Positions 1 through 22,717 of a stretch of 64,000 bases of DNA are shown one piece after another. The stretch is from a virus. Its lineage: Duplodnaviria > Caudoviricetes. The notes under the pieces were generated by a model. That model was not told the origin of the DNA, ran no database searches, and was given only the letters and a program-made list of their open reading frames with translations. How positions within the stretch are numbered: position 1 is the first letter of the stretch; every line of letters starts with the position of its first letter. The translations under genes and the position numbers were made by a program. Where the stretch lies: the IMG/VR virus record IMGVR_UViG_3300037067_003476, positions 1-64,000 of that record. One strand, written 5' to 3'.

Positions 1-1
1 C

Positions 2-742
2 ACCAAAGAGTTTCGCGACTACATCAAAGGCAGATCACTCAATTTAATGGGTTGTCAAAGTCTGGTTTCGTTACCAGACAACTTGAACGTCTGTGGGGAT
101 TTACATCTTAATGGCTGCACAGCACTTAAATCGCTGCCAGATAACTTGAAAATTGGCGGATATTTAGATCTTCGTAGCTGCATAGCACTTAAATCGCTGC
201 CAAACAATTTGAGGGTTGGCAGAGATCTATATCTTCGTAGCTGCATAGCACTTAAATCGCTGCCAAACAATTTGAGGGTTGGCAGAGATCTATATCTTCG
301 TAGCTGCATAGCACTTAAATCGCTGCCAAACAATTTTAGGGTTGGCAGAGATCTATATCTTCATAACTGCACAGCACTCAAATCGCTGCCAGACAAGTTG
401 AGAGTCGGTAGAAGTTTACATCTTAATGGCTGCACAGCACTCAAGTCGCTGCCAAACAATTTGAAAGTTGGCGGAAATTTATATCTTGGTGGCTGCACAG
501 CACTCAAGTCGCTGCCAAACAATTTGAGAGTCGGTGGAAGTTTACATCTTAATGGCTGCACAGTACTTAAATCGTTGCCAGATAACTTGAAAATTGGCGG
601 ATATTTAGATCTTCGTAGCTGCATAGCACTTAAATCGCTGCCAAACAATTTTAGGGTTGGCAGAGATCTATATCTTCATAACTGCACAGCACTCAAATCG
701 TTGCCAGATAACTTGAAAGTCAAAGTAAGTTGTAGAAGCTGA
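2..742 (+). CDS. Leucine-rich repeat protein (21-aa LRR units), 5' partial; frame is open from the window edge (TKEFRDYIKGRSLNLMGC...)
   Basis: About 10 tandem LKSLPxNLxVGxxLxLxxCTA units; no stop upstream of ATG 47; the upstream sequence matches the paralog at 11281, which has a ~95-aa N-terminal domain. Confidence 0.9.
   Translation, partial: TKEFRDYIKGRSLNLMGCQSLVSLPDNLNVCGDLHLNGCTALKSLPDNLKIGGYLDLRSCIALKSLPNNLRVGRDLYLRSCIALKSLPNNLRVGRDLYLRSCIALKSLPNNFRVGRDLYLHNCTALKSLPDKLRVGRSLHLNGCTALKSLPNNLKVGGNLYLGGCTALKSLPNNLRVGGSLHLNGCTVLKSLPDNLKIGGYLDLRSCIALKSLPNNFRVGRDLYLHNCTALKSLPDNLKVKVSCRS
62..721 (+). repeat. 63-bp coding tandem repeat array (~10.5 units)
   Basis: Repeated cttaaatcgctgcca...ctgcacagca units; units at 188 and 251 identical. 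Confidence 0.95.
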
Positions 743-6394: not shown

Positions 6395-6468
6395 GCGCCT
6401 ATAACTCAATGGTTTAGAGTAATCGGCTTTTAACCGATAAGTTGCAGGTTCGAGTCCTGCTGGGCGCA
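6395..6468 (+). tRNA. tRNA-Lys (anticodon UUU), CCA not encoded
   Basis: Acceptor GCGCCTA/TGGGCGC, D arm ACTC/GAGT, anticodon stem ATCGG-CTTTTAA-CCGAT, T arm GCAGG-TTCGAGT-CCTGC. Confidence 0.95.
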
Positions 6469-10594: not shown

Positions 10595-11206
10595 ATGTAT
10601 TTGAAAATCACGAGCAAGTGCAATATGTTTTGTAGACATTGTAACTTCGCTTGTACCAAAGATGGCGAAGATATGTGTCTTACGACACTAGAAAAGGCAC
10701 TAGAGTATAGCGATGGGATGATTTGCATCGGTGGTGGAGAACCCACAATACATCCACAATTTTGGGAAATGTTCGCATTAATCCTTGGACACAAGAATAC
10801 CGAAGATGTGTTTATTGTTACAAACGGAAGTATGACGACAACATCTATTGCGCTGGCCAAACTTGCCAAGGCTGGCGTCATCGGCGCTGCCCTATCACAA
10901 GACGAATGGCATGACGAAATAAATGATGATGTTGTTGAAGCATTCACTGTCTCCGATAGCGACAAACGTAATGCGCGCATATATGGTAATCATTTAGATG
11001 ATAGGAGAGAAATACGGACAGTAACAAAACTGGCGTATGGCGGTAGATGTGATTGGGGAAATAAAGATTTGTGTCCGTGCCCAGAAATTACCGTCGAGCC
11101 CAATGGCGACGTTTACTCGTGTGGTTGTTATAAACGAATTAAACTGGGAGATGTATTAAAGGGGTTTAACATCCCTGACTACCCGAAACTATGTATTAAT
11201 AAATAG
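10595..11206 (+). CDS. Radical SAM protein with C-terminal SPASM/twitch-like motif
   Basis: CNMFCRHC, GGGEP, VTNG, C...VEPNGDVYSC. Confidence 0.9.
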   Translation: MYLKITSKCNMFCRHCNFACTKDGEDMCLTTLEKALEYSDGMICIGGGEPTIHPQFWEMFALILGHKNTEDVFIVTNGSMTTTSIALAKLAKAGVIGAALSQDEWHDEINDDVVEAFTVSDSDKRNARIYGNHLDDRREIRTVTKLAYGGRCDWGNKDLCPCPEITVEPNGDVYSCGCYKRIKLGDVLKGFNIPDYPKLCINK

Positions 11207-11280
11207 GAGAAATGCGGTGATTAACCAGCTACTCGCTCTGCGGGTATATCTGGGGAACACATTTTGGAAAGGACCAAAGA

Positions 11281-11817
11281 ATGTGTCAATTTATTAGTGG
11301 CTGGATAAACCAAGAAGGCGAAATTTTGATTCGTGACTTTCGCAGTCACTCAGGAACCGAGAGGGCTCTTGGACGAAGCCTCGAAAGGGAGGGGTATCGC
11401 CCCTGGGAGTGGACACGAGATGATAGTGGCGAATCGCTGACTGTACGCATCGTTCCAAACGAGGAATGGAACGAGGCTGCGTACAAGAGTCTTATTCTCT
11501 CGCGATACCAGAGTCGAGGCGACCTGGGTTATAGTGTCGTCAACACCAAAGAGTTTCGCGACTACATCAAAAATTAATCACTCAACTTAATGGATTGTTG
11601 GAGTCTGGTCTCGTTACCAGACAACTTGAAAATTGGCGGAAATTTATGTATTGATAGCTGCACAGTACTTAAATCGCTGCCAAACAATTTAAGGGTTGGC
11701 ACAGATCTATATCTTTATAACTGCACAGCACTTAAATCGCTGCCAGATAACTTGAAAGTTGGCGGAAATCTATATCTTGATGGCTGCACAGCACTACAAC
11801 CCCCAAAACAATCCTAA
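11281..11817 (+). pseudogene. Second LRR gene copy interrupted by an in-frame TAA (11575-11577), three LRR units, degenerate end
   Basis: ORFs 11281-11577 and 11590-11817 share a frame; 11544-11571 is identical to window 1-28; TAA aligns with AGA of the first copy. Confidence 0.85.
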
Positions 11818-11887
11818 ACAACTCCTTAAGGACGAGAGTCTATATAGATGGGTTAATTTGTGTGGCGTCAAAATTTGAGGATAAACA

Positions 11888-12295
11888 ATGTATTTTTTAT
11901 ATAAAATATGGTTAATAGTTAAGCATAGACCATTCATCAAGTGTCCGTTCTGTGGTGGGATTGGTGGATCAATAGAAGGATATTATGAAAGAGAGTGGTC
12001 TGAATGTCATGCTTGTTATGACGAATGGCGTGGTCTTGACGACTGTAATCTTAGTTGGTTCGTAGGGAAAACTTCTTTACTAAACTGGATTCGTTCTAAG
12101 TTATCGATACGCAGCGGATTATGGTATCGTGCTAAACTCGTTACGATATTACGTTGTAAAATTGGCTTACATAAATTTAGCGAGATGGGTTACGATGAGA
12201 AGTTATGTGTATATTGCTACAAAGTCAGAGATATGGTATCACTGACTAATATGAAAAAGAAAGAAGGGCAAAATGGAAACAACAGAAATAATTAA
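11888..12295 (+). CDS. hypothetical protein with CxxC motifs
   Basis: GAGGA RBS. Confidence 0.6.
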   Translation: MYFLYKIWLIVKHRPFIKCPFCGGIGGSIEGYYEREWSECHACYDEWRGLDDCNLSWFVGKTSLLNWIRSKLSIRSGLWYRAKLVTILRCKIGLHKFSEMGYDEKLCVYCYKVRDMVSLTNMKKKEGQNGNNRNN

Positions 12296-12638
12296 TGGAT
12301 TAGCAGAAAAGATTGGGGTTGCAGCAGATAAACTAATACCTGTTGCAGAAAGACTGGTAACAGAAACACAAAATAAATATTTAGTTTTATCAATAGGGAC
12401 TGGTGTCGGTGTTATTGTTTGTCTTCTGATTACAACATTACTTATCGCGTGGACACATAGACTGTGCTTGAGGAATAAAGAAGGTCTCTCCGAAAACATT
12501 GCATCGCTATGTGCCACAATCGTAACAACAATCGTAACAACAATTGTCGCAACAGTCGTGTGTGCCGCAATGACAGTAGAGAATATCTCTAATTATATGA
12601 GTCCTGCTAAGACTTTATTAGAATCAATTATTAAATAA
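12273..12638 (+). CDS. hypothetical membrane protein (2 TM)
   Basis: two hydrophobic segments; internal 12-bp TIVT repeat. Confidence 0.65.
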   Translation: METTEIINGLAEKIGVAADKLIPVAERLVTETQNKYLVLSIGTGVGVIVCLLITTLLIAWTHRLCLRNKEGLSENIASLCATIVTTIVTTIVATVVCAAMTVENISNYMSPAKTLLESIIK

Positions 12639-12871
12639 ATGATGAATAAAATGATAACACTATCCGAGCCGTTAATATTGACAGAAACGAACGGGCTACT
12701 AGTCGCATGAATACAAATGGTACCATATCCTGTCTAACAAAAGCGGAACTTCCGTCTTGTGGACAAATACACCAAGAGACGCTATTAGGTTAATAGACTT
12801 TTGGAGTGGAGGTGATTGGAGATACTCGTTGTTGAACTAAGAAAAAGCCATGTGTGTCAGGAGATCGTTGA

Positions 12872-13381
12872 ATGACGACCAACGACTATATAAAATTACT
12901 TAAGGCAGAAGGTTTCATCAAGATCTTAGAGGAGGAGTTTGTTGGAAATGATAACTGCAAGGAAATATTTTTCATATATTTTCACAAAAACGGCATATTT
13001 GTAAGCTTTGACACATATAGCATTCACACGATTAACGCCGCGAAGATGGTTTTCAACTGGAAGCCCAAAACCCTATCTGCAATAAACGAAATATGCGGAA
13101 GTGGATACTTTATTAAGATGAGAAATGGTAAGATGGTGTGGATAGGAAGCGATGATGTTCGAGACAGCATGTGGTATAAATTAAGAAGGTTGAGACGAAG
13201 TGGCGTGTTTATACGAGACTGGTTCGAGTGTCCGGATATATGGTGGGTAAACTATACGGAATCAAAGTTGTCAACCAAAGAACTGTATCTCGCAATGATA
13301 AGAAAGTTCTGTAAACTTCCACAGTCCATACAGCAGGACTTTCATTTAATCCACGAATATCTAGAATATGGAGCAAGTTAA
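12872..13381 (+). CDS. hypothetical protein
   Basis: AGGAG RBS. Confidence 0.7.
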   Translation: MTTNDYIKLLKAEGFIKILEEEFVGNDNCKEIFFIYFHKNGIFVSFDTYSIHTINAAKMVFNWKPKTLSAINEICGSGYFIKMRNGKMVWIGSDDVRDSMWYKLRRLRRSGVFIRDWFECPDIWWVNYTESKLSTKELYLAMIRKFCKLPQSIQQDFHLIHEYLEYGAS

Positions 13382-13394
13382 AAGGGAGAATCAT

Positions 13395-14105
13395 ATGTGT
13401 GTAATTGTTGTAAGGCCCCCAGGAGTTAATATACAAAACCATATATTACAACTCTGCTTTATCGCAAACGATGATGGGGCGGGATTTATGTATGCCGCAA
13501 ACAAAAGGCTCTATATTGAAAAGGGATTTTTCACGTTCGATAGTTTCGCGAACGCCTATGCAAGGGTTCCTGATAATGTTCCATGTGTATTGCATTTTAG
13601 GTTGGCCACATCTGGATTACACGACTGGAATAATTGTCATCCCCATAAAATCAACAGGGGATTAGCTTTTGTGCATAATGGCATAATACCAACATCGCCA
13701 ATCCGTAACAGGACTGACAGCGACACGGTGTGGTTCAATAAGGAAGTACTCAAGAAAATGCCATCGAATTTCCATAAGAGATTAGATCTTGTTATGGCAA
13801 TAGAAGGAATGATTGGCCCATGCAATAAGTTAGTTGTCCTAGATAGGTTTGGTTGTATAACGTTCTTTAATGCGGATGGATTTGGCGAATACATGGGATG
13901 TTGGTTCTCGAATTTTAACTGGAGTAGACCTTTATTTGAACCTACGTCGCGCAAAAAACTGTGGTGCCCAAGCTGTTCGCGTGAATATAGTTGTCTCGCA
14001 AGTGATTTTAATATTATACAGGTTTGCAACTGTGGAAGTATATTGGAAAGGGCTGTAAACGAATATGCCTATGAGGGAGACTATGAGTACCAGCGAATGT
14101 TCTAA
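13395..14105 (+). CDS. Class II glutamine amidotransferase (Ntn hydrolase)
   Basis: Met-Cys start, NDDGAG, HFRLATSG, CHP, HNG, SDT. Confidence 0.92.
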   Translation: MCVIVVRPPGVNIQNHILQLCFIANDDGAGFMYAANKRLYIEKGFFTFDSFANAYARVPDNVPCVLHFRLATSGLHDWNNCHPHKINRGLAFVHNGIIPTSPIRNRTDSDTVWFNKEVLKKMPSNFHKRLDLVMAIEGMIGPCNKLVVLDRFGCITFFNADGFGEYMGCWFSNFNWSRPLFEPTSRKKLWCPSCSREYSCLASDFNIIQVCNCGSILERAVNEYAYEGDYEYQRMF

Positions 14106-15312
14106 TTGTGGAAAAACAACATCGCATCTACTTACAGAATGTTGTATGGAAAATGTATGTCTTGACTGTTTAATTGTGAATCATTTTAAGTGTCATGATT
14201 GTGGCGAGTTTTTTGAAAACGATGATTGTGTCTCCGATAAGGATGGTAATCAATATTGTGAACGTTGTCATAACAACAGGTTTGTGAGATGTTTTTGGTG
14301 TGATAAAGAGCTTGGTCGTGATGATGCTTGGTCAGACATAGATGGAGATTATGTATGTGAAAGCTGCCGGAATAGCAGATATTCACTTTGTATATGTTGC
14401 GGAGAATGGTTTCATAAAAACAATACAACCACAAACAATTTTGGAGAAATCTTTTGTGAAGATTGTTATGGCGAAAGGTATGTTGTGTGTGAGGCGTGCG
14501 GATGTGAAATAGATGTCGATGAGATTCATAACGAAGAGAGATTGTGCGCTGGGTGCTACGAAGCACAAAATCATGGCGTACACCCGCATTCATATAAACC
14601 AGAACCAGTGTTTTTCAAATGTTCAGACGAGAAAGCAAATCGATTTTTCGGAGTTGAATTGGAAATAGAAAACGTACATGACGACGATGAGCACGAAGAG
14701 GTATTGTTGGGCGATATTGAACGCTTCATTTACTACAAACATGATGGTAGCCTAAACAACGGATTTGAAGTAGTGACACATCCGTTTACATGGAAATGGA
14801 TGCGAAAAAATCGTGATATACTGGACCCAATATTCAACCTTAAAAACCATGGATATCGTAGCTGGGATACCGACACATGCGGAATGCATGTACATGTAAC
14901 GAAACAGAGCATTTCTTGCCTAACGCTATACAGACTGCTAAAGATATTCAATAATTATCCATCATGGATACTTGCGATAAGCAGAAGGACAAAATCCAAT
15001 TTAGATAATTGGGCAGCAGTGGAATTTGATAGTTCGTTGTCCAATATAGCCAAAAGGAAAAGCGACTCTCACCAGAGATACAGGGCTATCAACTTGTGTC
15101 CAGTAAATACGATAGAGTTTAGAATATTTCGTGGTACACTTAACAAAGAATCGTTCATGGCAAACCTAGAATTTGTTCATACCATAATAGAATATTGCGA
15201 GCAGACCAGTTACAGAAGCGTGTGTCCAGATGGATACATTAAATTTATAGGCCGTAAGAAAAGGAAGCAAATGGATACGGTATTGTGTGGAAGATACGAT
15301 GAAAACGAATAA
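14065..15312 (+). CDS. Amidoligase (COOH-NH2 ligase) with N-terminal CxxC repeat array
   Basis: GVELEIE, HDGSL, GFEVVTHP, CGMHVHV, RYRAIN, TIEFRIFRGT. Confidence 0.9.
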   Translation: MPMRETMSTSECSNCGKTTSHLLTECCMENVCLDCLIVNHFKCHDCGEFFENDDCVSDKDGNQYCERCHNNRFVRCFWCDKELGRDDAWSDIDGDYVCESCRNSRYSLCICCGEWFHKNNTTTNNFGEIFCEDCYGERYVVCEACGCEIDVDEIHNEERLCAGCYEAQNHGVHPHSYKPEPVFFKCSDEKANRFFGVELEIENVHDDDEHEEVLLGDIERFIYYKHDGSLNNGFEVVTHPFTWKWMRKNRDILDPIFNLKNHGYRSWDTDTCGMHVHVTKQSISCLTLYRLLKIFNNYPSWILAISRRTKSNLDNWAAVEFDSSLSNIAKRKSDSHQRYRAINLCPVNTIEFRIFRGTLNKESFMANLEFVHTIIEYCEQTSYRSVCPDGYIKFIGRKKRKQMDTVLCGRYDENE

Positions 15313-15841
15313 ATTGATAATTATAGATCTTGAGGCGACATGCATCGAGAACCAAACTGCCGACTTTGTACAAGAGATAATCCAAATAGGCATTGCTGTA
15401 TACAATACAAAGATTGGCAAGACGGAAAATTGTATGGGATTTTTGGTCAGACCAAATGATATTGACATTAGCGAGTACTGTACAAACCTGACTGGCATAA
15501 CTCGCGATATGTTAGTTAGTGAAGGCCATCCATTACGCGAAGTGTTGAACACTATAAAAAAGCTTTATCCAATAAAGACCAGACCATGGTGCTCATGGGG
15601 GCTGTATGATAGAATACAACTTATGTCTGAGTGTTCGGCGAAACGAATATCATATCCGTTTAGCGAGAATCATTTTGACTTGAAAAGCATTTACGCGATA
15701 TTTCGCGGTCTATCGAATGGGGTGGGGTTACAAAAAGCCATTGAGATGGAGGATATGACGTTTGACGGGACGCCACATTCCGCAATGTGGGATGTTTTTA
15801 ACACATCAAAAATTGCGTCGGCTATATTCTATAAGCGATGA
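15299..15841 (+). CDS. DEDDh 3'-5' exonuclease (KapD/ERI-1-like)
   Basis: IDLEATC, EIIQIG, SWGLYD, HSAMWD. Confidence 0.9.
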   Translation: MKTNKLIIIDLEATCIENQTADFVQEIIQIGIAVYNTKIGKTENCMGFLVRPNDIDISEYCTNLTGITRDMLVSEGHPLREVLNTIKKLYPIKTRPWCSWGLYDRIQLMSECSAKRISYPFSENHFDLKSIYAIFRGLSNGVGLQKAIEMEDMTFDGTPHSAMWDVFNTSKIASAIFYKR

Positions 15842-15896
15842 TAAACAAATCGGCGATAATCTGGTACAAGAACAAAATACGAAAGGCAAACCTAAT

Positions 15897-16295
15897 ATGT
15901 GTGTTTCGATACTAACTTCTGTCGTATGTGGGATTATTATTGGATTAGAACGAGAACATAGGGACAAACCGGCAGGAATAAAAACACTAGCACTGATATG
16001 TCTCGGTAGCACCATATTTACAATCATCTCGATCATGATATCTAGTGATTATCCTTCTGACAGAGCACGAATAGCTGCCCAAGTTGTTACAGGAATAGGT
16101 TTTCTCGGTGCTGGTGCAATCATACGAGATGGTAGTACTATAGTTGGGTTGACAACTGGCGCTACAATATGGACGACAGCAGCAATAGGGATGTTAATTG
16201 GTATAGGACATCCTGTTTATGGCGTTATTATATCTGTGGCTATAGTTTTATTATTAACAGCACTTAGAAAGATAGAAAAATATCTGGGAAGATAA
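15897..16295 (+). CDS. mgtC: MgtC/SapB family membrane protein (N-terminal domain only)
   Basis: IGLERE..DKPAGIKT, RIAAQVVTGIGFLGAG, GLTTGATIW. Confidence 0.92.
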   Translation: MCVSILTSVVCGIIIGLEREHRDKPAGIKTLALICLGSTIFTIISIMISSDYPSDRARIAAQVVTGIGFLGAGAIIRDGSTIVGLTTGATIWTTAAIGMLIGIGHPVYGVIISVAIVLLLTALRKIEKYLGR

Positions 16296-16296
16296 T

Positions 16297-16506
16297 ATGA
16301 CAAAAGAACAAATGTATAATGGCGGATTAACTATGACGCGATTGGCGTATACTGATGAAGAATTGCCCCTGGCAATAGAAACCACTACCTTAGTCATAGC
16401 TTATCTCAAAGGACGTGGGCCGCTTTTCCATTTAGCGTATAGTCCGCTTACAAAAGACTTAGAAATGCTTCAATCGTTCGCTAAGAGTAGGGGTCTAAAG
16501 AATTAA
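16297..16506 (+). CDS. hypothetical protein
   Basis: packed ORF. Confidence 0.55.
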   Translation: MTKEQMYNGGLTMTRLAYTDEELPLAIETTTLVIAYLKGRGPLFHLAYSPLTKDLEMLQSFAKSRGLKN

Positions 16507-16508
16507 TC

Positions 16509-16733
16509 ATGGCAAAATTCTATGTAAGTAGTGGCGAGTTAAGAAAAATAGTGACAGAGAAAACTCTATTATCTGCGGCTGTAAAAGCTATTAAGATTGT
16601 TATAGCAGAAAACCCAGAGACATTAATAGGTCAAGCTATAGTAATAAGTGAACTTGGTTTTGGAAAATTGCACGAAGGAGATACTATAGTGAATACAATG
16701 TCTATCGCAGAATTACTTAGTGATGATAAATAA
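16509..16733 (+). CDS. hypothetical protein
   Basis: packed ORF. Confidence 0.6.
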   Translation: MAKFYVSSGELRKIVTEKTLLSAAVKAIKIVIAENPETLIGQAIVISELGFGKLHEGDTIVNTMSIAELLSDDK

Positions 16734-16755
16734 AAAAGGAGCCCAGACGGGCTCC
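16732..16755 (-). terminator. Rho-independent terminator for the minus-strand gene
   Basis: GGAGCCC-4nt-GGGCTCC stem followed by T6 on the minus strand. Confidence 0.85.
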
Positions 16756-16782
16756 GTATAGTTGTAATATTGTTATACTAAG

Positions 16783-16980
16783 TTAAGATCCAAATAACGA
16801 ATTCCATGCCTGTTCAAATGGACAAGATGGTTGATCTTCGCAATCACTCACAAGGGCCATCCACCAGTTACAGTCCTGATAGGCTTTAGCAGCTTGTAGA
16901 GCACTGTAGTCACAACCGAAATTGCAGCACAAACCCACTAGACAAATCGCAAACAGAACAAAAGCAAATGCGTTTTTCAT
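16783..16980 (-). CDS. Small Cys-rich secreted protein/lipoprotein
   Basis: Strong RBS AAGGAGGTG, signal-peptide-like N-terminus ending FG-C, own terminator, fills a gap in + strand coding. Confidence 0.8.
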   Translation of the reverse strand: MKNAFAFVLFAICLVGLCCNFGCDYSALQAAKAYQDCNWWMALVSDCEDQPSCPFEQAWNSLFGS

Positions 16981-16998
16981 ACGGCACCTCCTTCTACG

Positions 16999-17009
16999 AT
17001 TTTATACAC
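16999..17009 (-). promoter_or_regulatory. -10-like element GTGTATAAAAT upstream of the antisense gene
   Basis: located just 5' of the RBS. Confidence 0.4.
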
Positions 17010-17020
17010 GGAGCAAACGA

Positions 17021-17245
17021 ATGGATATAAATGAAGCAGTTGAAATATACAATGATTTATTACACTTAGAACAAAATGGCATCTGGCCACATGGAGCATA
17101 TCCCTTATGGATTCATAAACACTATAAGTTATTGTTAGATATGGAAGTTGGTGCTTCTCAAATCCATAATGCTGCTATAAGCGATGTCGCAAGAGTATTC
17201 CATCAGATCCTTGTAAACCATGGTATCGTAAAACCGAGGGAATAA
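17021..17245 (+). CDS. hypothetical protein
   Basis: GGAG RBS before ATG 17021. Confidence 0.6.
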   Translation: MDINEAVEIYNDLLHLEQNGIWPHGAYPLWIHKHYKLLLDMEVGASQIHNAAISDVARVFHQILVNHGIVKPRE

Positions 17246-17247
17246 AG

Positions 17248-17940
17248 ATGGCAAAAATACTTTTGGATTTAGATATGGACTACTTTAACTATATAAAAAA
17301 TCCATCAGAGGTATTAGGTAGATTATTATCAAAAGTTCCTAAAAATGTACCAGCAGTAGTTGTTATTGAACATCAAACTATATTGCCTTATGTCAAAGAG
17401 TGGGTTAGGGGTGGATTAGTTCCGATACCATTCAAATGGATTCATATGGATCAGCATCATGATTTTTACCAAGGCAAAAGTAAGCCAGTCCATTGTGGTA
17501 ATTTTGGTTTCTTTATGCCTACAAAATATTATAATAAATTTACATGGGTTGCGCAAAGTCGAAATAGCAGAGTCGACGATGACTGGGAATTTATGTCCAG
17601 TGAATGGATTAGAAAAAATGGAAAAAGAGTGTCTGAGCATTATGATAGACAACCCATGCGCAAAGAGGATTCGGTTATTGGTATGGTAATTGCGATTTCT
17701 CCAGACTATATCGATTATCCTGAATTTGTTTTGGCCAGTATGCTAGCAATAATAAATAATCACTTCAATCTAAAAACGATTCCACTTCCAAGGCAAAATA
17801 GGCGAGGACGCGAACAGTACGAGGAGAGAAAATGGGTCTCGTCATGGAAAAGATCGGCATCAGACAAGATATACGAGTGGAGAAAACGTCTTTGCGAAAT
17901 GATGAACAAGGAAGATTATCTACGCATTATGACGCATTAG
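17248..17940 (+). CDS. UPF0489/arginase-like fold protein
   Basis: LDLDMDYF, EHQ, HMDQHHD, CGN, ISPDY. Confidence 0.6.
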   Translation: MAKILLDLDMDYFNYIKNPSEVLGRLLSKVPKNVPAVVVIEHQTILPYVKEWVRGGLVPIPFKWIHMDQHHDFYQGKSKPVHCGNFGFFMPTKYYNKFTWVAQSRNSRVDDDWEFMSSEWIRKNGKRVSEHYDRQPMRKEDSVIGMVIAISPDYIDYPEFVLASMLAIINNHFNLKTIPLPRQNRRGREQYEERKWVSSWKRSASDKIYEWRKRLCEMMNKEDYLRIMTH

Positions 17941-18374
17941 TGGTATCGGATAAGTTGTCAGACGGAAGAATAACATGTCTGCGACCAAGCGATGCTGATG
18001 ATTGCATGCATGGGGTATGTGTATCGTGTGGAAAAGAGTTGTGGTTTGAGAAGCCAAAATTCGAGACGTTGGTGGATGTCTCATGCTCTTTTCAATGCGC
18101 TAAAAATGCTGGGTTGTACAAGGAATGGATTGAGCCAGAGCCAGAACCAGCACAACCAGCCATTGTGATAGAAGTATGCGAGAAATGCGGTGGACGTAAA
18201 TACGGTGATGTGTACCTACATAAGAGAAGCTGTCCGCTCAAGATAAAAAAGGTACGAGAACAAAGGCCGAACTGTTCTATGTGCGGTGGGAAGCCATTTA
18301 AGAGAGGATGGAAACATACAAAAGAATGCATCAATAACTCTAGAAACAGGAGGAAGAAATGTGTGAAAAAGTAA
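17940..18374 (+). CDS. multi zinc-finger hypothetical protein
   Basis: CxxC...CSxxC plus two CxxC...HxxxC motifs; likely GTG start at 17940. Confidence 0.6.
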   Translation: MVSDKLSDGRITCLRPSDADDCMHGVCVSCGKELWFEKPKFETLVDVSCSFQCAKNAGLYKEWIEPEPEPAQPAIVIEVCEKCGGRKYGDVYLHKRSCPLKIKKVREQRPNCSMCGGKPFKRGWKHTKECINNSRNRRKKCVKK

Positions 18375-18577
18375 TCGGACATATCTATACTCCGTCGAGC
18401 AATGTGGTAATAATGCCACTAGAGGAAGTGGCAAAAATATCAGAACAACTTGGGTGCAATACCTACTGGTTGCTAAATAAACATGGCGGAATGGATGTGG
18501 CAGTTTATCCTCGCACCAGTATACAGATATCGCAAGTCGGTAAGAGTGTTCTCGTCACAAGAAAGGACACTAGATAA
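18359..18577 (+). CDS. hypothetical protein
   Basis: GGAGG RBS. Confidence 0.6.
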   Translation: MCEKVIGHIYTPSSNVVIMPLEEVAKISEQLGCNTYWLLNKHGGMDVAVYPRTSIQISQVGKSVLVTRKDTR

Positions 18578-19005
18578 TGTATCTAGAAACAATTTCCGAG
18601 ATAGTGGCTAAGATAAAGCAATACAATATCGAAAATTGTGAATTGGTTAGTTCTAATAAGAACATGTTTCGTATAGTTGTGGGCAATACACAGTTTGTTA
18701 TTAGAGTAACTGCCGAGCGTATTAATGTTATGGACACAAATAATCACGTCCTATTCTTAGTTCGACGAATGCTATCTATACCAACCAGTTTCAATACCAC
18801 AAAAGTTGCAGAGGGCATAATTGATATCTATAGGAAAAAAGAGAGGGATAGGTGCGATGAGTTGATTAGAGAAGGGGTGGCCGAGATAAGAAAAAAATGG
18901 CCGTTCTCAATAAAGATATCTTGTCATGTTGCAAACGTGTTTGATCTTAGTTTTTCTGGAATGACAACCAAGGATATATTCGATGTTATCGAAAGAATGC
19001 GATAG
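18577..19005 (+). CDS. hypothetical protein
   Basis: TAATG coupling. Confidence 0.65.
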   Translation: MYLETISEIVAKIKQYNIENCELVSSNKNMFRIVVGNTQFVIRVTAERINVMDTNNHVLFLVRRMLSIPTSFNTTKVAEGIIDIYRKKERDRCDELIREGVAEIRKKWPFSIKISCHVANVFDLSFSGMTTKDIFDVIERMR

Positions 19006-19165
19006 GGTGTCAAAGGTTGTATGCGGAATAGACAAAACTATATCTATCGTAACAACTCTGATTTATGCGCGTGCAATCTTCAAAGTAATCCCGCTACCTA
19101 ATGATGATTTTAGAATAGAAAGTGATATCAAGCATGTCAAAATGATTAATAAAGGATAAAAAACA

Positions 19166-19402
19166 ATGTGCGTACCATCTCGCAAGACAAGTAGTCGACA
19201 ACCGTTTACTGTGGAAGATGTTAATACGCAAGATAGAACAGTGAGAATCACTATCAGGGGGGACTGTATAGGAACAATAGCCAACCATCTCAAAACATGT
19301 CCGCGAAGTCGAAAATCCCACAAAGTAGTGGTTAGAATGGGATATGAATTGGAGACGGCTGGTAACGCAATATTCCAAAAAGGAATCCGAGAATGTCAGT
19401 AG
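19166..19402 (+). CDS. hypothetical protein
   Basis: AAGGA RBS. Confidence 0.55.
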   Translation: MCVPSRKTSSRQPFTVEDVNTQDRTVRITIRGDCIGTIANHLKTCPRSRKSHKVVVRMGYELETAGNAIFQKGIRECQ

Positions 19403-19593
19403 ATCAATGCGAGTTTCCATACTGTCGCAACGAAGCTGCGTATACCTATATTGGGGTATGCATTTGCCATAAACACTGGGTTGAAATATCAAGTTGCAAT
19501 TCCCCAGAAAATGAGTATAAGATTCTTGCAAAGATAGGACTAATGAGAAATGAAAACGGCTCCGTGGTAGAGCGTAATCGTCGAAATGTGTAG
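19393..19593 (+). CDS. small Cys/His protein
   Basis: CxxxxC...CxxH. Confidence 0.55.
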   Translation: MSVDQCEFPYCRNEAAYTYIGVCICHKHWVEISSCNSPENEYKILAKIGLMRNENGSVVERNRRNV

Positions 19594-19595
19594 GG

Positions 19596-19832
19596 GTGAA
19601 AATGACAAGACAAAAAACAAAACATATATCGCAAAGACTAAGACGGATACTAGACCAAATGGATCTGGACAGCGACGGACTAATAAACCGAAAGGTTGTT
19701 CATGGAAGTACAAACGAAATAGACATGTTATTAGATAACCTAGAACTGGTGGTAAAATATCTACAATTTGATTCCCTGTCAACCAAAAAAGAAGTGAATG
19801 AGTTTGTAAACAAGAATCGCAGCGAAAAATGA
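19596..19832 (+). CDS. hypothetical protein
   Basis: packed ORF. Confidence 0.55.
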   Translation: MKMTRQKTKHISQRLRRILDQMDLDSDGLINRKVVHGSTNEIDMLLDNLELVVKYLQFDSLSTKKEVNEFVNKNRSEK

Positions 19833-19840
19833 GGTAGCGT

Positions 19841-20194
19841 ATGAAACTGGCATTACTTCCGCTCACTGGAGAAAATGAAGTTTGTATTGTCAATTGCGAC
19901 AGATGGCAACATGGTTGTCAGGAGTTTATATTGGCGCTAAGAGGAGCCATAAAAGAATGGGTCGAAACTACCAACGAAGGTAAGACCGCGCTCGCTATGC
20001 ACTACAACATTATCGCAATTAAAGATATGCCCAAATATGCGCCAAACTGTTTTGTTACGGGAAATGCTCTAGGCAAAATAATGGCTAAGCATTCTATTCC
20101 TAGATTCGATATAATCACAGCTAAAATTGATGGTGATATGGACAATAACGGGGTTAGCGGAACAACTAGTTTATATAAGGGGCGAATAGGATGA
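19841..20194 (+). CDS. hypothetical protein
   Basis: GAGGT RBS. Confidence 0.6.
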   Translation: MKLALLPLTGENEVCIVNCDRWQHGCQEFILALRGAIKEWVETTNEGKTALAMHYNIIAIKDMPKYAPNCFVTGNALGKIMAKHSIPRFDIITAKIDGDMDNNGVSGTTSLYKGRIG

Positions 20195-21756
20195 ATAACT
20201 TTACTGAGAATATTATCGACTATGTTCTATCTGGCCACGCAATGCTGTCTGTCATCACGCATGAAGATGATAGGGCTATAAACGATATTTCAATTGCCGC
20301 CAAAAATAGTAATAGAACATTGGTTGTGTGGACAATTGCTAGTGGATGGAAAAAATCTAGTGGAGAGCAAGCGGTTCCACTCAATGGCATACCAGATCCT
20401 ATTAGCGCGATACAGGATATAGAAAAACTTCCAGAAAAATCTATGTGCGTAGTAAAGGATTTTGGGGTTTACCTAAACCAAAACACGTTTCAGCAGGCAG
20501 ATGTTGTTATTGGATGGTTAAAGGAAATAAGGCCATTGTTGTACTGTGGACAAAAAACAATCATATTTCTAGGCCCAGATTTGTATATACCAACGCAACT
20601 TAAACAAGAGATTACGCAAACGGACTTCGGTCTTCCAGATACCGCCCAAATAGAACACCAGATCAAATACGTATGTGATAGCGTTGAATCAAAGGATGGC
20701 AAGGGTCTGGTAGTAGACAAGTCGGTAATGTCGGATGTCGTTAATGCATGCAAGGGCATGACACAGCAACAGACTATAGATAGGGCATCGCTTGCGATAA
20801 GAAAAAACAAGGGATTAACACCGGAATCTGTTAAGATAATACTGCATGAAAAGGCTGGTGTCATCAGATCATCTGGGATATTGTCCTACATAGAACCCCC
20901 AGCAGGGGGGCTTGGCATAGTTGGTGGGCTTGAAGTTCTGAAGAATCACATATTAATGGACAAACCATGCTTCACAGAAGAGGCCAGGGCATTTGGAATA
21001 GAATATCCAAAGGGTGTGTTGTTAGTTGGAATTCCGGGCTGCGGAAAGACGTTAATCAGTACTGCGATAGCTAGCGAGTTTGGTTCGCCATTGATTCAAA
21101 TGGACGTAGGCAATATTATGGATAAGTATGTTGGCGAATCTGAGTCGAATATGAGGGAGGCGGTAAAGATTCTTGAGTCTGTATCGCCATGCGTGTTACA
21201 GCTAGACGAAATAGAGAAGGGGTTTGGTGGCGCTGGAGACCTAGACGGCGGTGCATCCAAAAGGGTGTTTGGATCATTCATTAAGTGGTTAAACGATAAA
21301 ACATCGCCAGTATATATAGTCGCAACGGCCAATCAGGTTGAGTCGTTACCGCCAGAGTTTGCTAGGAAAGGTAGGTTTGATGAAATCTTTGGTGTTGACC
21401 TACCAAACATAGATGAAAGATCAGAAATCGTTAGTATTCATCTACGTAAGCGAAATAGGAACCCTGATAACTTTGATGTATCAGCGATAGCAAGGGCGAC
21501 AGAAAACTTTACTGGATCTGATATCGAACAGGCAATTAAGGTTGGTCTCAAAATGGCCTTTGCCAACAAATCAGAGTTAACAACCGATCTTTGTTTGCTT
21601 GGTGTCGGTAGTATCATTCCGCTATTTAAGACCGAACCACATAGGATAGAAAGGATTAGGGAATGGTGTGATTCTCGTGCCAAGAAAGCTAATGCGACTA
21701 CAACGTCGGTAACGAAATCGGTAAGACGAAAAATAACGGTGAGCAATGGAGAGTAA
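20191..21756 (+). CDS. Ycf46-family AAA+ ATPase
   Basis: Degenerate N-terminal AAA domain plus GIPGCGKT, QLDEIEKG, ATAN, RKGRFDE. Confidence 0.92.
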   Translation: MNNFTENIIDYVLSGHAMLSVITHEDDRAINDISIAAKNSNRTLVVWTIASGWKKSSGEQAVPLNGIPDPISAIQDIEKLPEKSMCVVKDFGVYLNQNTFQQADVVIGWLKEIRPLLYCGQKTIIFLGPDLYIPTQLKQEITQTDFGLPDTAQIEHQIKYVCDSVESKDGKGLVVDKSVMSDVVNACKGMTQQQTIDRASLAIRKNKGLTPESVKIILHEKAGVIRSSGILSYIEPPAGGLGIVGGLEVLKNHILMDKPCFTEEARAFGIEYPKGVLLVGIPGCGKTLISTAIASEFGSPLIQMDVGNIMDKYVGESESNMREAVKILESVSPCVLQLDEIEKGFGGAGDLDGGASKRVFGSFIKWLNDKTSPVYIVATANQVESLPPEFARKGRFDEIFGVDLPNIDERSEIVSIHLRKRNRNPDNFDVSAIARATENFTGSDIEQAIKVGLKMAFANKSELTTDLCLLGVGSIIPLFKTEPHRIERIREWCDSRAKKANATTTSVTKSVRRKITVSNGE

Positions 21757-22717
21757 AATGTCAGAAAAAACTGTGAATCTTTTTGATTTAGGGTGTCTTG
21801 TGCAGATAAATATAGGGTTTTGGTCTGGACGAAAGATGCTTACACAGAACGATATGCTAAGTGTTGGCATAGATTCAAGCAAGTTACCAAAAGACATCTG
21901 TAATCTTGGGAGGAAATTGTTGGTTCCGCAGCATGAGATAGGGGTATTCCTGTCTATTGAGCAGCAGGCACGTAATTTCTTAAAGCGATGGTCTATCCCG
22001 TTTGGTATCGCTAGCGCAAACTTTGTCCCAATTAGTAAGTTACAGGAAGTTGTTGAAAAGCTGGATGAATACAAGGCCAAGTACTATGGACTAGTAGATT
22101 CCTTCATCAAGAGATTTGAAGCAGCAAAGTCCAAGATACAAATCGAACATCCCGATTTCTGGGAGAAGTGTCTAAGACCCCATTATCCGTCTAGCGCCGA
22201 GTCATTGCGCAGTAGATTCTATTTTAGATATTTCGTATTCAAGGTCGCCAATGTCAATGCGATAGACGAGGTGGACGCAAATGATGTGGTGGCAAAACAA
22301 ACAGAAATGCAAGTCCGAATGAAGGAGGAGGTTGACAAACTAGTCAACGAAACTGTTTGTACGTTGCGAAATGAAACCGTTAAGTTCTGCGACCTTGTTG
22401 TGGCAAGAGTAAATGGCTCTCCGTATGGAGACGAAGAAGAGGGAAAGAAGCTAACGAAGAGATCATTGGCAAGTTTCAGAAAATACGTCGACTGGTTCAG
22501 GGAAATGAATGTCTTTGGTGATAAGGATATAGAAAAAATGCTGTGCGAATTCAAGAGCACATATCTTGGCGAGCTAACCACCCCACAGGAAATACAAAAT
22601 ACACAAGTCGCCAACGCAATTGTCGACCATATGAGTAAAATCCGTTCAATGGCACAGGGCGACAGCGGGGCTGTTGATAATGTGTTGAATATAGCCAAGA
22701 GAAAGATCGAGATTTAA
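21746..22717 (+). CDS. DUF3150-like protein
   Basis: IGFWSGRK...LGRKLLVP...YPSSAESLRSRF pattern; follows the Ycf46 ATPase. Confidence 0.7.
   Translation: MESKMSEKTVNLFDLGCLVQINIGFWSGRKMLTQNDMLSVGIDSSKLPKDICNLGRKLLVPQHEIGVFLSIEQQARNFLKRWSIPFGIASANFVPISKLQEVVEKLDEYKAKYYGLVDSFIKRFEAAKSKIQIEHPDFWEKCLRPHYPSSAESLRSRFYFRYFVFKVANVNAIDEVDANDVVAKQTEMQVRMKEEVDKLVNETVCTLRNETVKFCDLVVARVNGSPYGDEEEGKKLTKRSLASFRKYVDWFREMNVFGDKDIEKMLCEFKSTYLGELTTPQEIQNTQVANAIVDHMSKIRSMAQGDSGAVDNVLNIAKRKIEI

Follow-up and report, generated by a model that had tools for sequence, protein, structure and literature searches.

A phage LRR-family paralog, probably truncated recently by an in-frame TAA, that may yield a free N-terminal domain

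Silent-cassette variation systems include Neisseria pilE/pilS, Borrelia vlsE and the lamprey VLR, in which the silent donor copies are without a start codon, a ribosome-binding site and a constant region. In DGRs of the Bordetella phage BPP-1 Mtd type, a phage-encoded binding protein carries hypervariable ligand-face codons. The phage locus described here shares features with each of them. Like the pilS, vls and VLR systems, it belongs to a set with a constant part and variable segments, in which a non-expressed copy holds unique variants and homologous exchange has occurred; like DGR targets, it concerns a phage-encoded putative binding protein with hypervariable ligand-face codons; and like the T4 gene 60 bypass, it has a stop inside a phage gene whose downstream part is in good shape. 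Plant NLR/R-gene clusters such as the RPP8 family (PMC6771003) are LRR multigene families with diversifying selection and inter-paralog exchange. The phage family resembles the plant families in that the amino-acid changes fall on solvent-exposed residues of the LRR strands while the framework is conserved, and in that the paralogs swap tracts, truncated or pseudogene members included. It differs from them in that the phage proteins are tiny (176 aa), would be cytoplasmic, and have 21-residue units and a different N-domain, and in that the whole family sits in one phage lineage and is absent from the nearest relative.

The window, that is, the whole 64,000-nucleotide stretch analysed, is the first 64 kb of a virus contig of 143,155 bp in a single piece. 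Since the phage terminase shared ~31% identity with the terminases of Bacillus siphophages, this phage is far from any cultured phage. A BLAST search with locus 2, together with a protein search with a built-in positive control, recovered three family copies in the genome, all on the same strand. The initial annotation had proposed a family spread over several loci, in which the N-domain is constant and the LRR part variable, and the genome-wide count of three paralogs bears this out. Shufflon-type site-specific inversion was ruled out by the common strand of all copies. The two copies other than locus 2 were located as follows.

Window 1..742, + strand: 3' part of locus 1, comprising 34 nt of the N-domain end and 11 LRR units, a unit count that comes from a short-read assembly and may be unreliable (BLAST, unit register).
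Genome 143029-143155, + strand: 5' part of locus 1, its first 127 nt, which are the last bases of the contig.
Genome 139722-140252, + strand: locus 3, which lies beyond the window, an intact gene of 176 aa.

The two ends of the contig adjoin each other, by synteny, in the complete relative G001 (143,428 bp, with terminal repeats). Therefore, the contig is a circular permutation broken within locus 1, with ~136 nt missing. Loci 1 and 3 were identical over their first 141 nt and over window 1-113. Moreover, a 3.4-kb contig of the ENA ERZ27247358 MEGAHIT (k=141) assembly carried the same 141 nt at its start and its end, so that loci 1 and 3 are identical there, which explains the contig break. 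The CheckV label of the contig, "86% complete, linear", probably understates its completeness. The three family loci lie in or near the phage tRNA island (genome 139163-141840, window 6395-6468), which holds two tRNA-Met followed by Leu(UAA) and Glu(UUC) and, within the window, Lys(UUU). This region consists of small, poorly conserved ORFs and is strongly rearranged compared with G001. Among the family copies of this phage, only locus 2 was silenced, and its coding part is laid out as follows.

11281..11577, + strand: ORF of the 98-aa N-domain (MCQF...SHS...WEWT...), ending in TAA (ORF list).
11575..11577, + strand: in-frame ochre TAA, followed by T; codon 99, which is position 4 of LRR unit 0 (codon alignment, unit register).
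11578..11817, + strand: LRR remainder in the same frame, with the rest of unit 0, units 1-2 and a truncated unit 3 (unit register).

Direct reading confirmed the earlier statement that window 11544-11571 equals window 1-28. After this identical run, locus 2 reads AAT TAA versus GGC AGA in locus 1, GAT versus GGT, and TGG versus CAA. The upstream 98-codon ORF, the TAA and the downstream LRR part all shared one reading frame, which continues beyond the TAA over 3.5 LRR units and reaches a second stop at 11815-11817, and the codon alignment of locus 2 with the intact locus 3 was gap-free through codon 172. Both paralogs have an Arg codon at the place of the TAA, and this unit position had been said to hold other residues in other units; position 4 was indeed R, G, E or T. 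Locus 3 has a GAA at this unit position, one base away from TAA, so that a nonsense mutation is required for no more than the last step to TAA. In the model of the intact locus 3, codon 99 fell in the linker that joins the last N-domain helix (90-95) to the first LRR strand (101-102). When placed in the unit register, NLCIDS, TDLYLYN and NLYLDG, variants that had been noted as absent from locus 1, were all unique to locus 2, and the stop, as had been claimed, leaves the N-domain intact, with every residue that is invariant across ~85 relatives kept. The end of locus 2, which lies within ~10 nt of the right-hand junction of an inserted cassette, had been described as degenerate; it does not reflect decay, as locus 3 likewise ends shortly after GCTAL.

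It was considered whether the TAA is an artefact, coming from a minor variant or from a chimeric path through the repeat graph, with a sense codon in the dominant genome. The family breaks both assemblies, with contig ends inside locus 1 and locus 3, and near-identical 63-nt units are error-prone in short-read assembly. Nevertheless, two assemblies of different k-mer sizes were 100% identical over a 9.1-kb stretch across locus 2 (9100/9100 bases including the TAA in the ENA ERZ27247358 MEGAHIT contig, the reads being possibly not independent). Furthermore, AATTAA and the neighbouring W and D codons were unique to locus 2, and five of the six bases in codons 98-99 were unlike those of the paralogs; multi-base changes of the same kind were present in other face codons of locus 2. 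A single-base sequencing error was ruled out by these five differing bases and by the agreement of the two assemblies, and the artefact as a whole appears improbable. The TAA could be a minority allele, or be common to two assemblies built from the same reads. Exact-pattern and protein-guided scans of viral and metagenome contigs returned no other stop-site allele and no close relative.

TAA terminated 57 of the 106 long ORFs in the phage and was its commonest stop codon, and TAAT was its commonest four-base stop context. UAAU is a strong terminator in E. coli. The five phage tRNAs included no suppressor tRNA, ochre or other. The RNA folding around the stop was no stronger than that of shuffled sequences (z -0.93 and -0.04), the one stem downstream of the stop was present in the intact locus 3 too, and the gap-free codon alignment left no bases inserted at the stop compared with the paralogs. 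Since the stop is in the preferred TAAT context, and a suppressor tRNA, significant RNA structure, inserted bases and a reverse transcriptase are all missing, the product of locus 2 would most likely be a free 98-aa N-domain.

Translational recoding would instead have ribosomes read through or hop over the TAA to give a full-length protein. An in-frame AAC three codons past the TAA could pair with the tRNA of the preceding AAT codon. However, since no bases are inserted relative to the paralogs, a hop to this AAC (codon 102, the sole in-frame landing candidate) would remove part of unit 0, with a loss of four residues including the first LRR strand. Unlike T4 gene 60, locus 2 has no inserted gap, no significant hairpin, and no take-off/landing pair that restores the paralog sequence. 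A ribosomal hop was ruled out as there was neither an insert nor significant structure, and stop-codon recoding was ruled out for a phage without a suppressor tRNA whose main stop is TAA. With the stop in the commonest terminator context of the phage, we give recoding of either kind very little credence.

The reading that we consider the probable one, with moderate confidence, is that locus 2 is a recently truncated paralog that yields the free N-domain. A family member would be a small cytoplasmic protein in which an N-domain of ~97 aa passes directly into a solenoid of 21-residue LRR units. In locus 2, a genuine nonsense TAA in its TAAT context would halt translation in the linker between the N-domain and the LRR, and the LRR tail of 3.5 units would then be untranslated, or weakly made via re-initiation at a conserved ATG 12 nt downstream. 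The stop and its place, the three loci, the exchanged tracts and the selection pattern are observations; which polypeptides locus 2 makes, and what role the family has, we infer.

The boundaries of homology with G001 bear on the origin of locus 2, and they delimit two further features.

11207..11280, + strand: leader of the inserted locus 2 cassette (G001 homology boundary).
11825..11878, + strand: remnant of a 74-aa gene, its last 17 codons and stop (...GVKI-stop) (G001 alignment).

The homology with G001 ended right after the radical-SAM stop codon at 11206 and restarted at ~11826. In G001, the slot of locus 2 is occupied by an intact 74-aa gene, the 5' part of which is replaced by the cassette in this phage. 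By these boundaries, locus 2 is a cassette of ~620 bp, which would have come in as such and displaced the 5' part of the older small gene. A Shine-Dalgarno-like GGAAAGGA was found at 11266-11273, 7 nt upstream of the locus 2 ATG. Since the homology among the paralogs starts exactly at the ATG, the leader of locus 2 has no homologous counterpart in front of locus 1 or locus 3. A protein search with a positive control detected no family member in G001, the closest complete relative. Therefore, the copies were added recently and are specific to this lineage; they do not amount to an organised system.

The LRR part had a repeat period of 63 nt (TRF), corresponding to a unit of 21 codons, LxLxxCxxLKSLPxNLxVGx, in which L6, C11, L14, L17 and P18 were invariant. 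Locus 1 scored 44.8 bits against PF23952 (cut-off 27.9). The locus 2 tail alone scored 16 bits, below the Pfam LRR cut-off of 27.9, and its DNA was 76-97% identical to the units of locus 1. In the model of locus 3, short strands followed at regular spacing after residue 100, and its best Foldseek rows were LRR domains. The nearest solved LRR folds were 8Z5U (an LRR chain of the Vibrio polar flagellar motor), 8ZF0 (a plant helper-NLR), 6MLX (TpLRR) and 4NKH (SspH1). The model shares with them a generic LRR solenoid in its C-terminal half, at 24-31% identity over 70-100 columns; these matches were all weak (E 0.3-1) and none extended over the N-domain.

The initial annotation had pointed out that the differences gather at the variable LRR codons. 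Taking the nearest locus 1 units as reference, with a face set picked partly after the data had been seen, nonsynonymous differences were found in 12/32 face codons versus 1/45 framework codons (Fisher p=6e-5), which supports this claim. Between the LRR units of locus 2 and the nearest units of locus 1, omega was 0.05 for the framework and 1.45 for the face, and all five multi-nucleotide codon changes lay on the face. The tail had no frameshift, no second stop before its end, and almost no framework change. Since its framework is intact, either the stop is young or the tail is still used. An old pseudogene would not be expected to have such an intact tail, and its state agrees with the tail being still in use; some of the framework constraint seen in this comparison may lie on the locus 1 branch. 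The clustering of differences on the face would stem from diversifying selection on the ligand-binding face.

In line with the exchange that had been suspected, a conversion-tract test between the loci found exchanged tracts. The N-domains of loci 2 and 3 contained an identical run of 101 nt (p=0.004), and their dS was 0.34 in codons 1-49 versus 0.064 in codons 50-97. Loci 1 and 3, identical up to window position 113, were sharply divergent beyond it. The nearest units of locus 2 in locus 1 were close as well, L2.2 and L1.10 being 4 nt apart and L2.3 and L1.7 differing by 3 nt over 42. Judged from the sequences, these patches of divergence are exchanged tracts, as expected of recombining paralogs. 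The similarity of the framework would be kept up by unit duplication together with homologous exchange among units and loci. Within locus 1 (window 149-720), several units were near-identical (1/63 nt between L1.3 and L1.4; L1.2 close to L1.9; L1.5 close to L1.10), which indicates a very recent duplication of units or segments.

No dedicated diversity generator would be involved. The reverse transcriptase profile PF00078 (RVT_1) had no match across the 143-kb genome, while the control genomes were positive, and a DGR was ruled out in a genome without reverse transcriptase. Unlike a DGR, the locus also lacks a template/variable repeat pair, and the changes between copies are not confined to template adenines: they involve all four bases (GGC/AAT, CAA/TGG, CAT/TAT) as well as synonymous framework sites. 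The suggestion that a dedicated diversifying process had inactivated locus 2 was thus not supported, given that neither reverse transcriptase nor inverted copies are present and that one nonsense step suffices.

The initial annotation had also viewed locus 2 as a possible archive or donor. On such a reading, it would be an untranslated reservoir of LRR units to be copied into the expressed loci. Exchange between the loci did occur, and locus 2 has face variants that were seen nowhere else. However, none of these unique variants was seen in locus 1 or locus 3; there is a single such copy, of 3.5 units; reverse transcriptase and inverted copies are absent; and the family is missing from the closest complete relative, so that it is not an established system. 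Moreover, locus 2 has its own ATG, a ribosome-binding site and a full N-domain under purifying selection, and it is therefore a poor fit to a silent donor cassette. Unlike the silent copies of the pilS, vls and VLR systems, it is an entire gene, start codon, ribosome-binding site and constant domain included, not a promoterless partial cassette, and it is one copy, with no array and no dedicated machinery found. The donor reading was accordingly not supported, and we think it has hardly any chance of being correct. The stop at the boundary between head and LRR has the look of normal turnover within a gene family, and not of a stock of spare repeat cassettes.

The good state of the tail raises a further possibility, a working split gene, in which the stop is kept so that locus 2 gives both a free N-domain and a separate LRR-only protein, and the two pieces may re-associate. 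The second protein would start here, by termination-reinitiation.

11590, + strand: ATG conserved in the family, opening a 75-codon ORF, with no Shine-Dalgarno.

This ATG, 12 nt past the stop, was kept in all three copies, and the LRR framework behind the stop is intact (omega 0.05). In addition, metagenomes commonly contain small LRR-only proteins made of the same SLPDNL-VGG units, short relatives consisting of the N-domain only exist, and in a second phage one paralog is interrupted at this junction too. Nevertheless, 11590 is preceded by no Shine-Dalgarno, whereas the family's own starts have one, and the 75-aa ORF was absent from the protein collection and called as a gene by neither source. 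According to the model, the product starting at Met104 would be without the first LRR strand (101-102), which stands directly behind the last N-domain helix. The second case was found in ENA ERZ25039515 contig_75952 (L008:5001-6419), where two tandem paralogs with an N-domain and MORN-like repeats lie side by side. The upstream one carried a frameshift exactly at the junction of head and repeats, AAAA versus AAA, so that an N-domain ORF of 86 aa and a separate repeat ORF of 120 aa remain. As this is a single extra A in an A-run of an apparent long-read assembly, it may be a sequencing error; either long reads gave a homopolymer error here or the junction is broken naturally in a second case, and it might hint that junction breaks are tolerated or useful. 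The short family members L010 and L011 had no clear detached repeat module. On balance, we regard the split gene as unlikely and retain the recently truncated paralog as the reading of locus 2.

The N-domain of locus 2 had 92% identity to that of locus 3, with an omega of 0.22, and the second member of the protein cluster that contains the 98-aa protein was locus 3 itself. AlphaFold2 modelled the locus 2 N-domain with a pLDDT of 94.9 and a pTM of 0.86, and the intact locus 3 as one rigid body with a pLDDT of 95.4 and a pTM of 0.88. A full HMMER search of 1.8 billion representatives yielded a family of ~89 clusters, in which the domain nearly always started at residue 1. S6, H23, W44 and R56 were invariant and M1, C2 and E43 near-invariant in this family. 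The N-domain of locus 2 retained C2, S6, H23, E43, W44 and R56, and it matched the HMM built from its family at 6.5e-32. The near-invariant Cys2 would be the N-terminal residue once Met is removed, beside Ser6, His23, Glu43, Trp44 and Arg56.

The N-domain had no match in Pfam or PHROG, no convincing fold match by Foldseek against the PDB, in VIA-align wide or in BFVD (best Z overall 3.4), and no usable match in the ESM Atlas; a sequence-profile search of the PDB matched an LRR protein only. The family was absent from 50,697 GenBank phage records, all members found were metagenome or uncultured-virus sequences, and a literature search found no description of it. The N-domain is a previously undescribed alpha/beta domain of ~97 aa without a known fold match.

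Across the family, the N-domain was fused to at least six kinds of repeat array; its C-terminal partners were several LRR types, MORN-like, YD/RHS-like, DUF4116, FNIP and pentapeptide repeats. The family also has naturally short members, of 86-126 aa. In other genomes, the genes of the family lay in phage replication or early regions. Since two long contigs with family members had one copy each within 10 kb, the multi-copy arrangement is not general. In this phage, by contrast with those contigs, the copies form a natural series of long LRR, short LRR and head alone.

The role of the family might be that of a constant effector head, which exchangeable repeat arrays would direct to its targets in the host. 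Proteins that redirect or neutralise host factors typically combine an unvarying head with a binding module that can be swapped, and with this architecture the family may reasonably be considered a candidate new class of phage proteins for host takeover or counter-defence. In its strongest form, the N-domain would be a new and very small head, an effector or an enzyme, that uncultured phages aim at host targets by means of interchangeable LRR, MORN-like, pentapeptide, FNIP, RHS and DUF4116 arrays, and breaks at the junction would recurrently free or uncouple the head; this we put forward as a speculation that is rather doubtful in full. The N-domain family is of more consequence than the stop codon that exposed it.

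In three phage contexts (L006:4262-6381, L013:1755-7980 and window 11281-22717), an N-domain gene lay no more than a few kb from a Ycf46-like AAA ATPase that had DUF3150 or DUF2997 neighbours. This proximity may reflect related phages and not a functional link. Among cultured phages, the only match to LRR units of the SLPDNL-VGG type was a hypothetical protein of Edwardsiella phage Edno5 (GenBank MH898687.1, 27311-27532), with 45% identity over 75 aa and without the N-domain. Finally, in a 245-aa ORF at window 13368-14105, a short leader is followed by an internal MCVIVV motif, the Met-Cys of which may be the actual start; the ORF is reminiscent of N-terminal-nucleophile (class II amidotransferase-like) enzymes.
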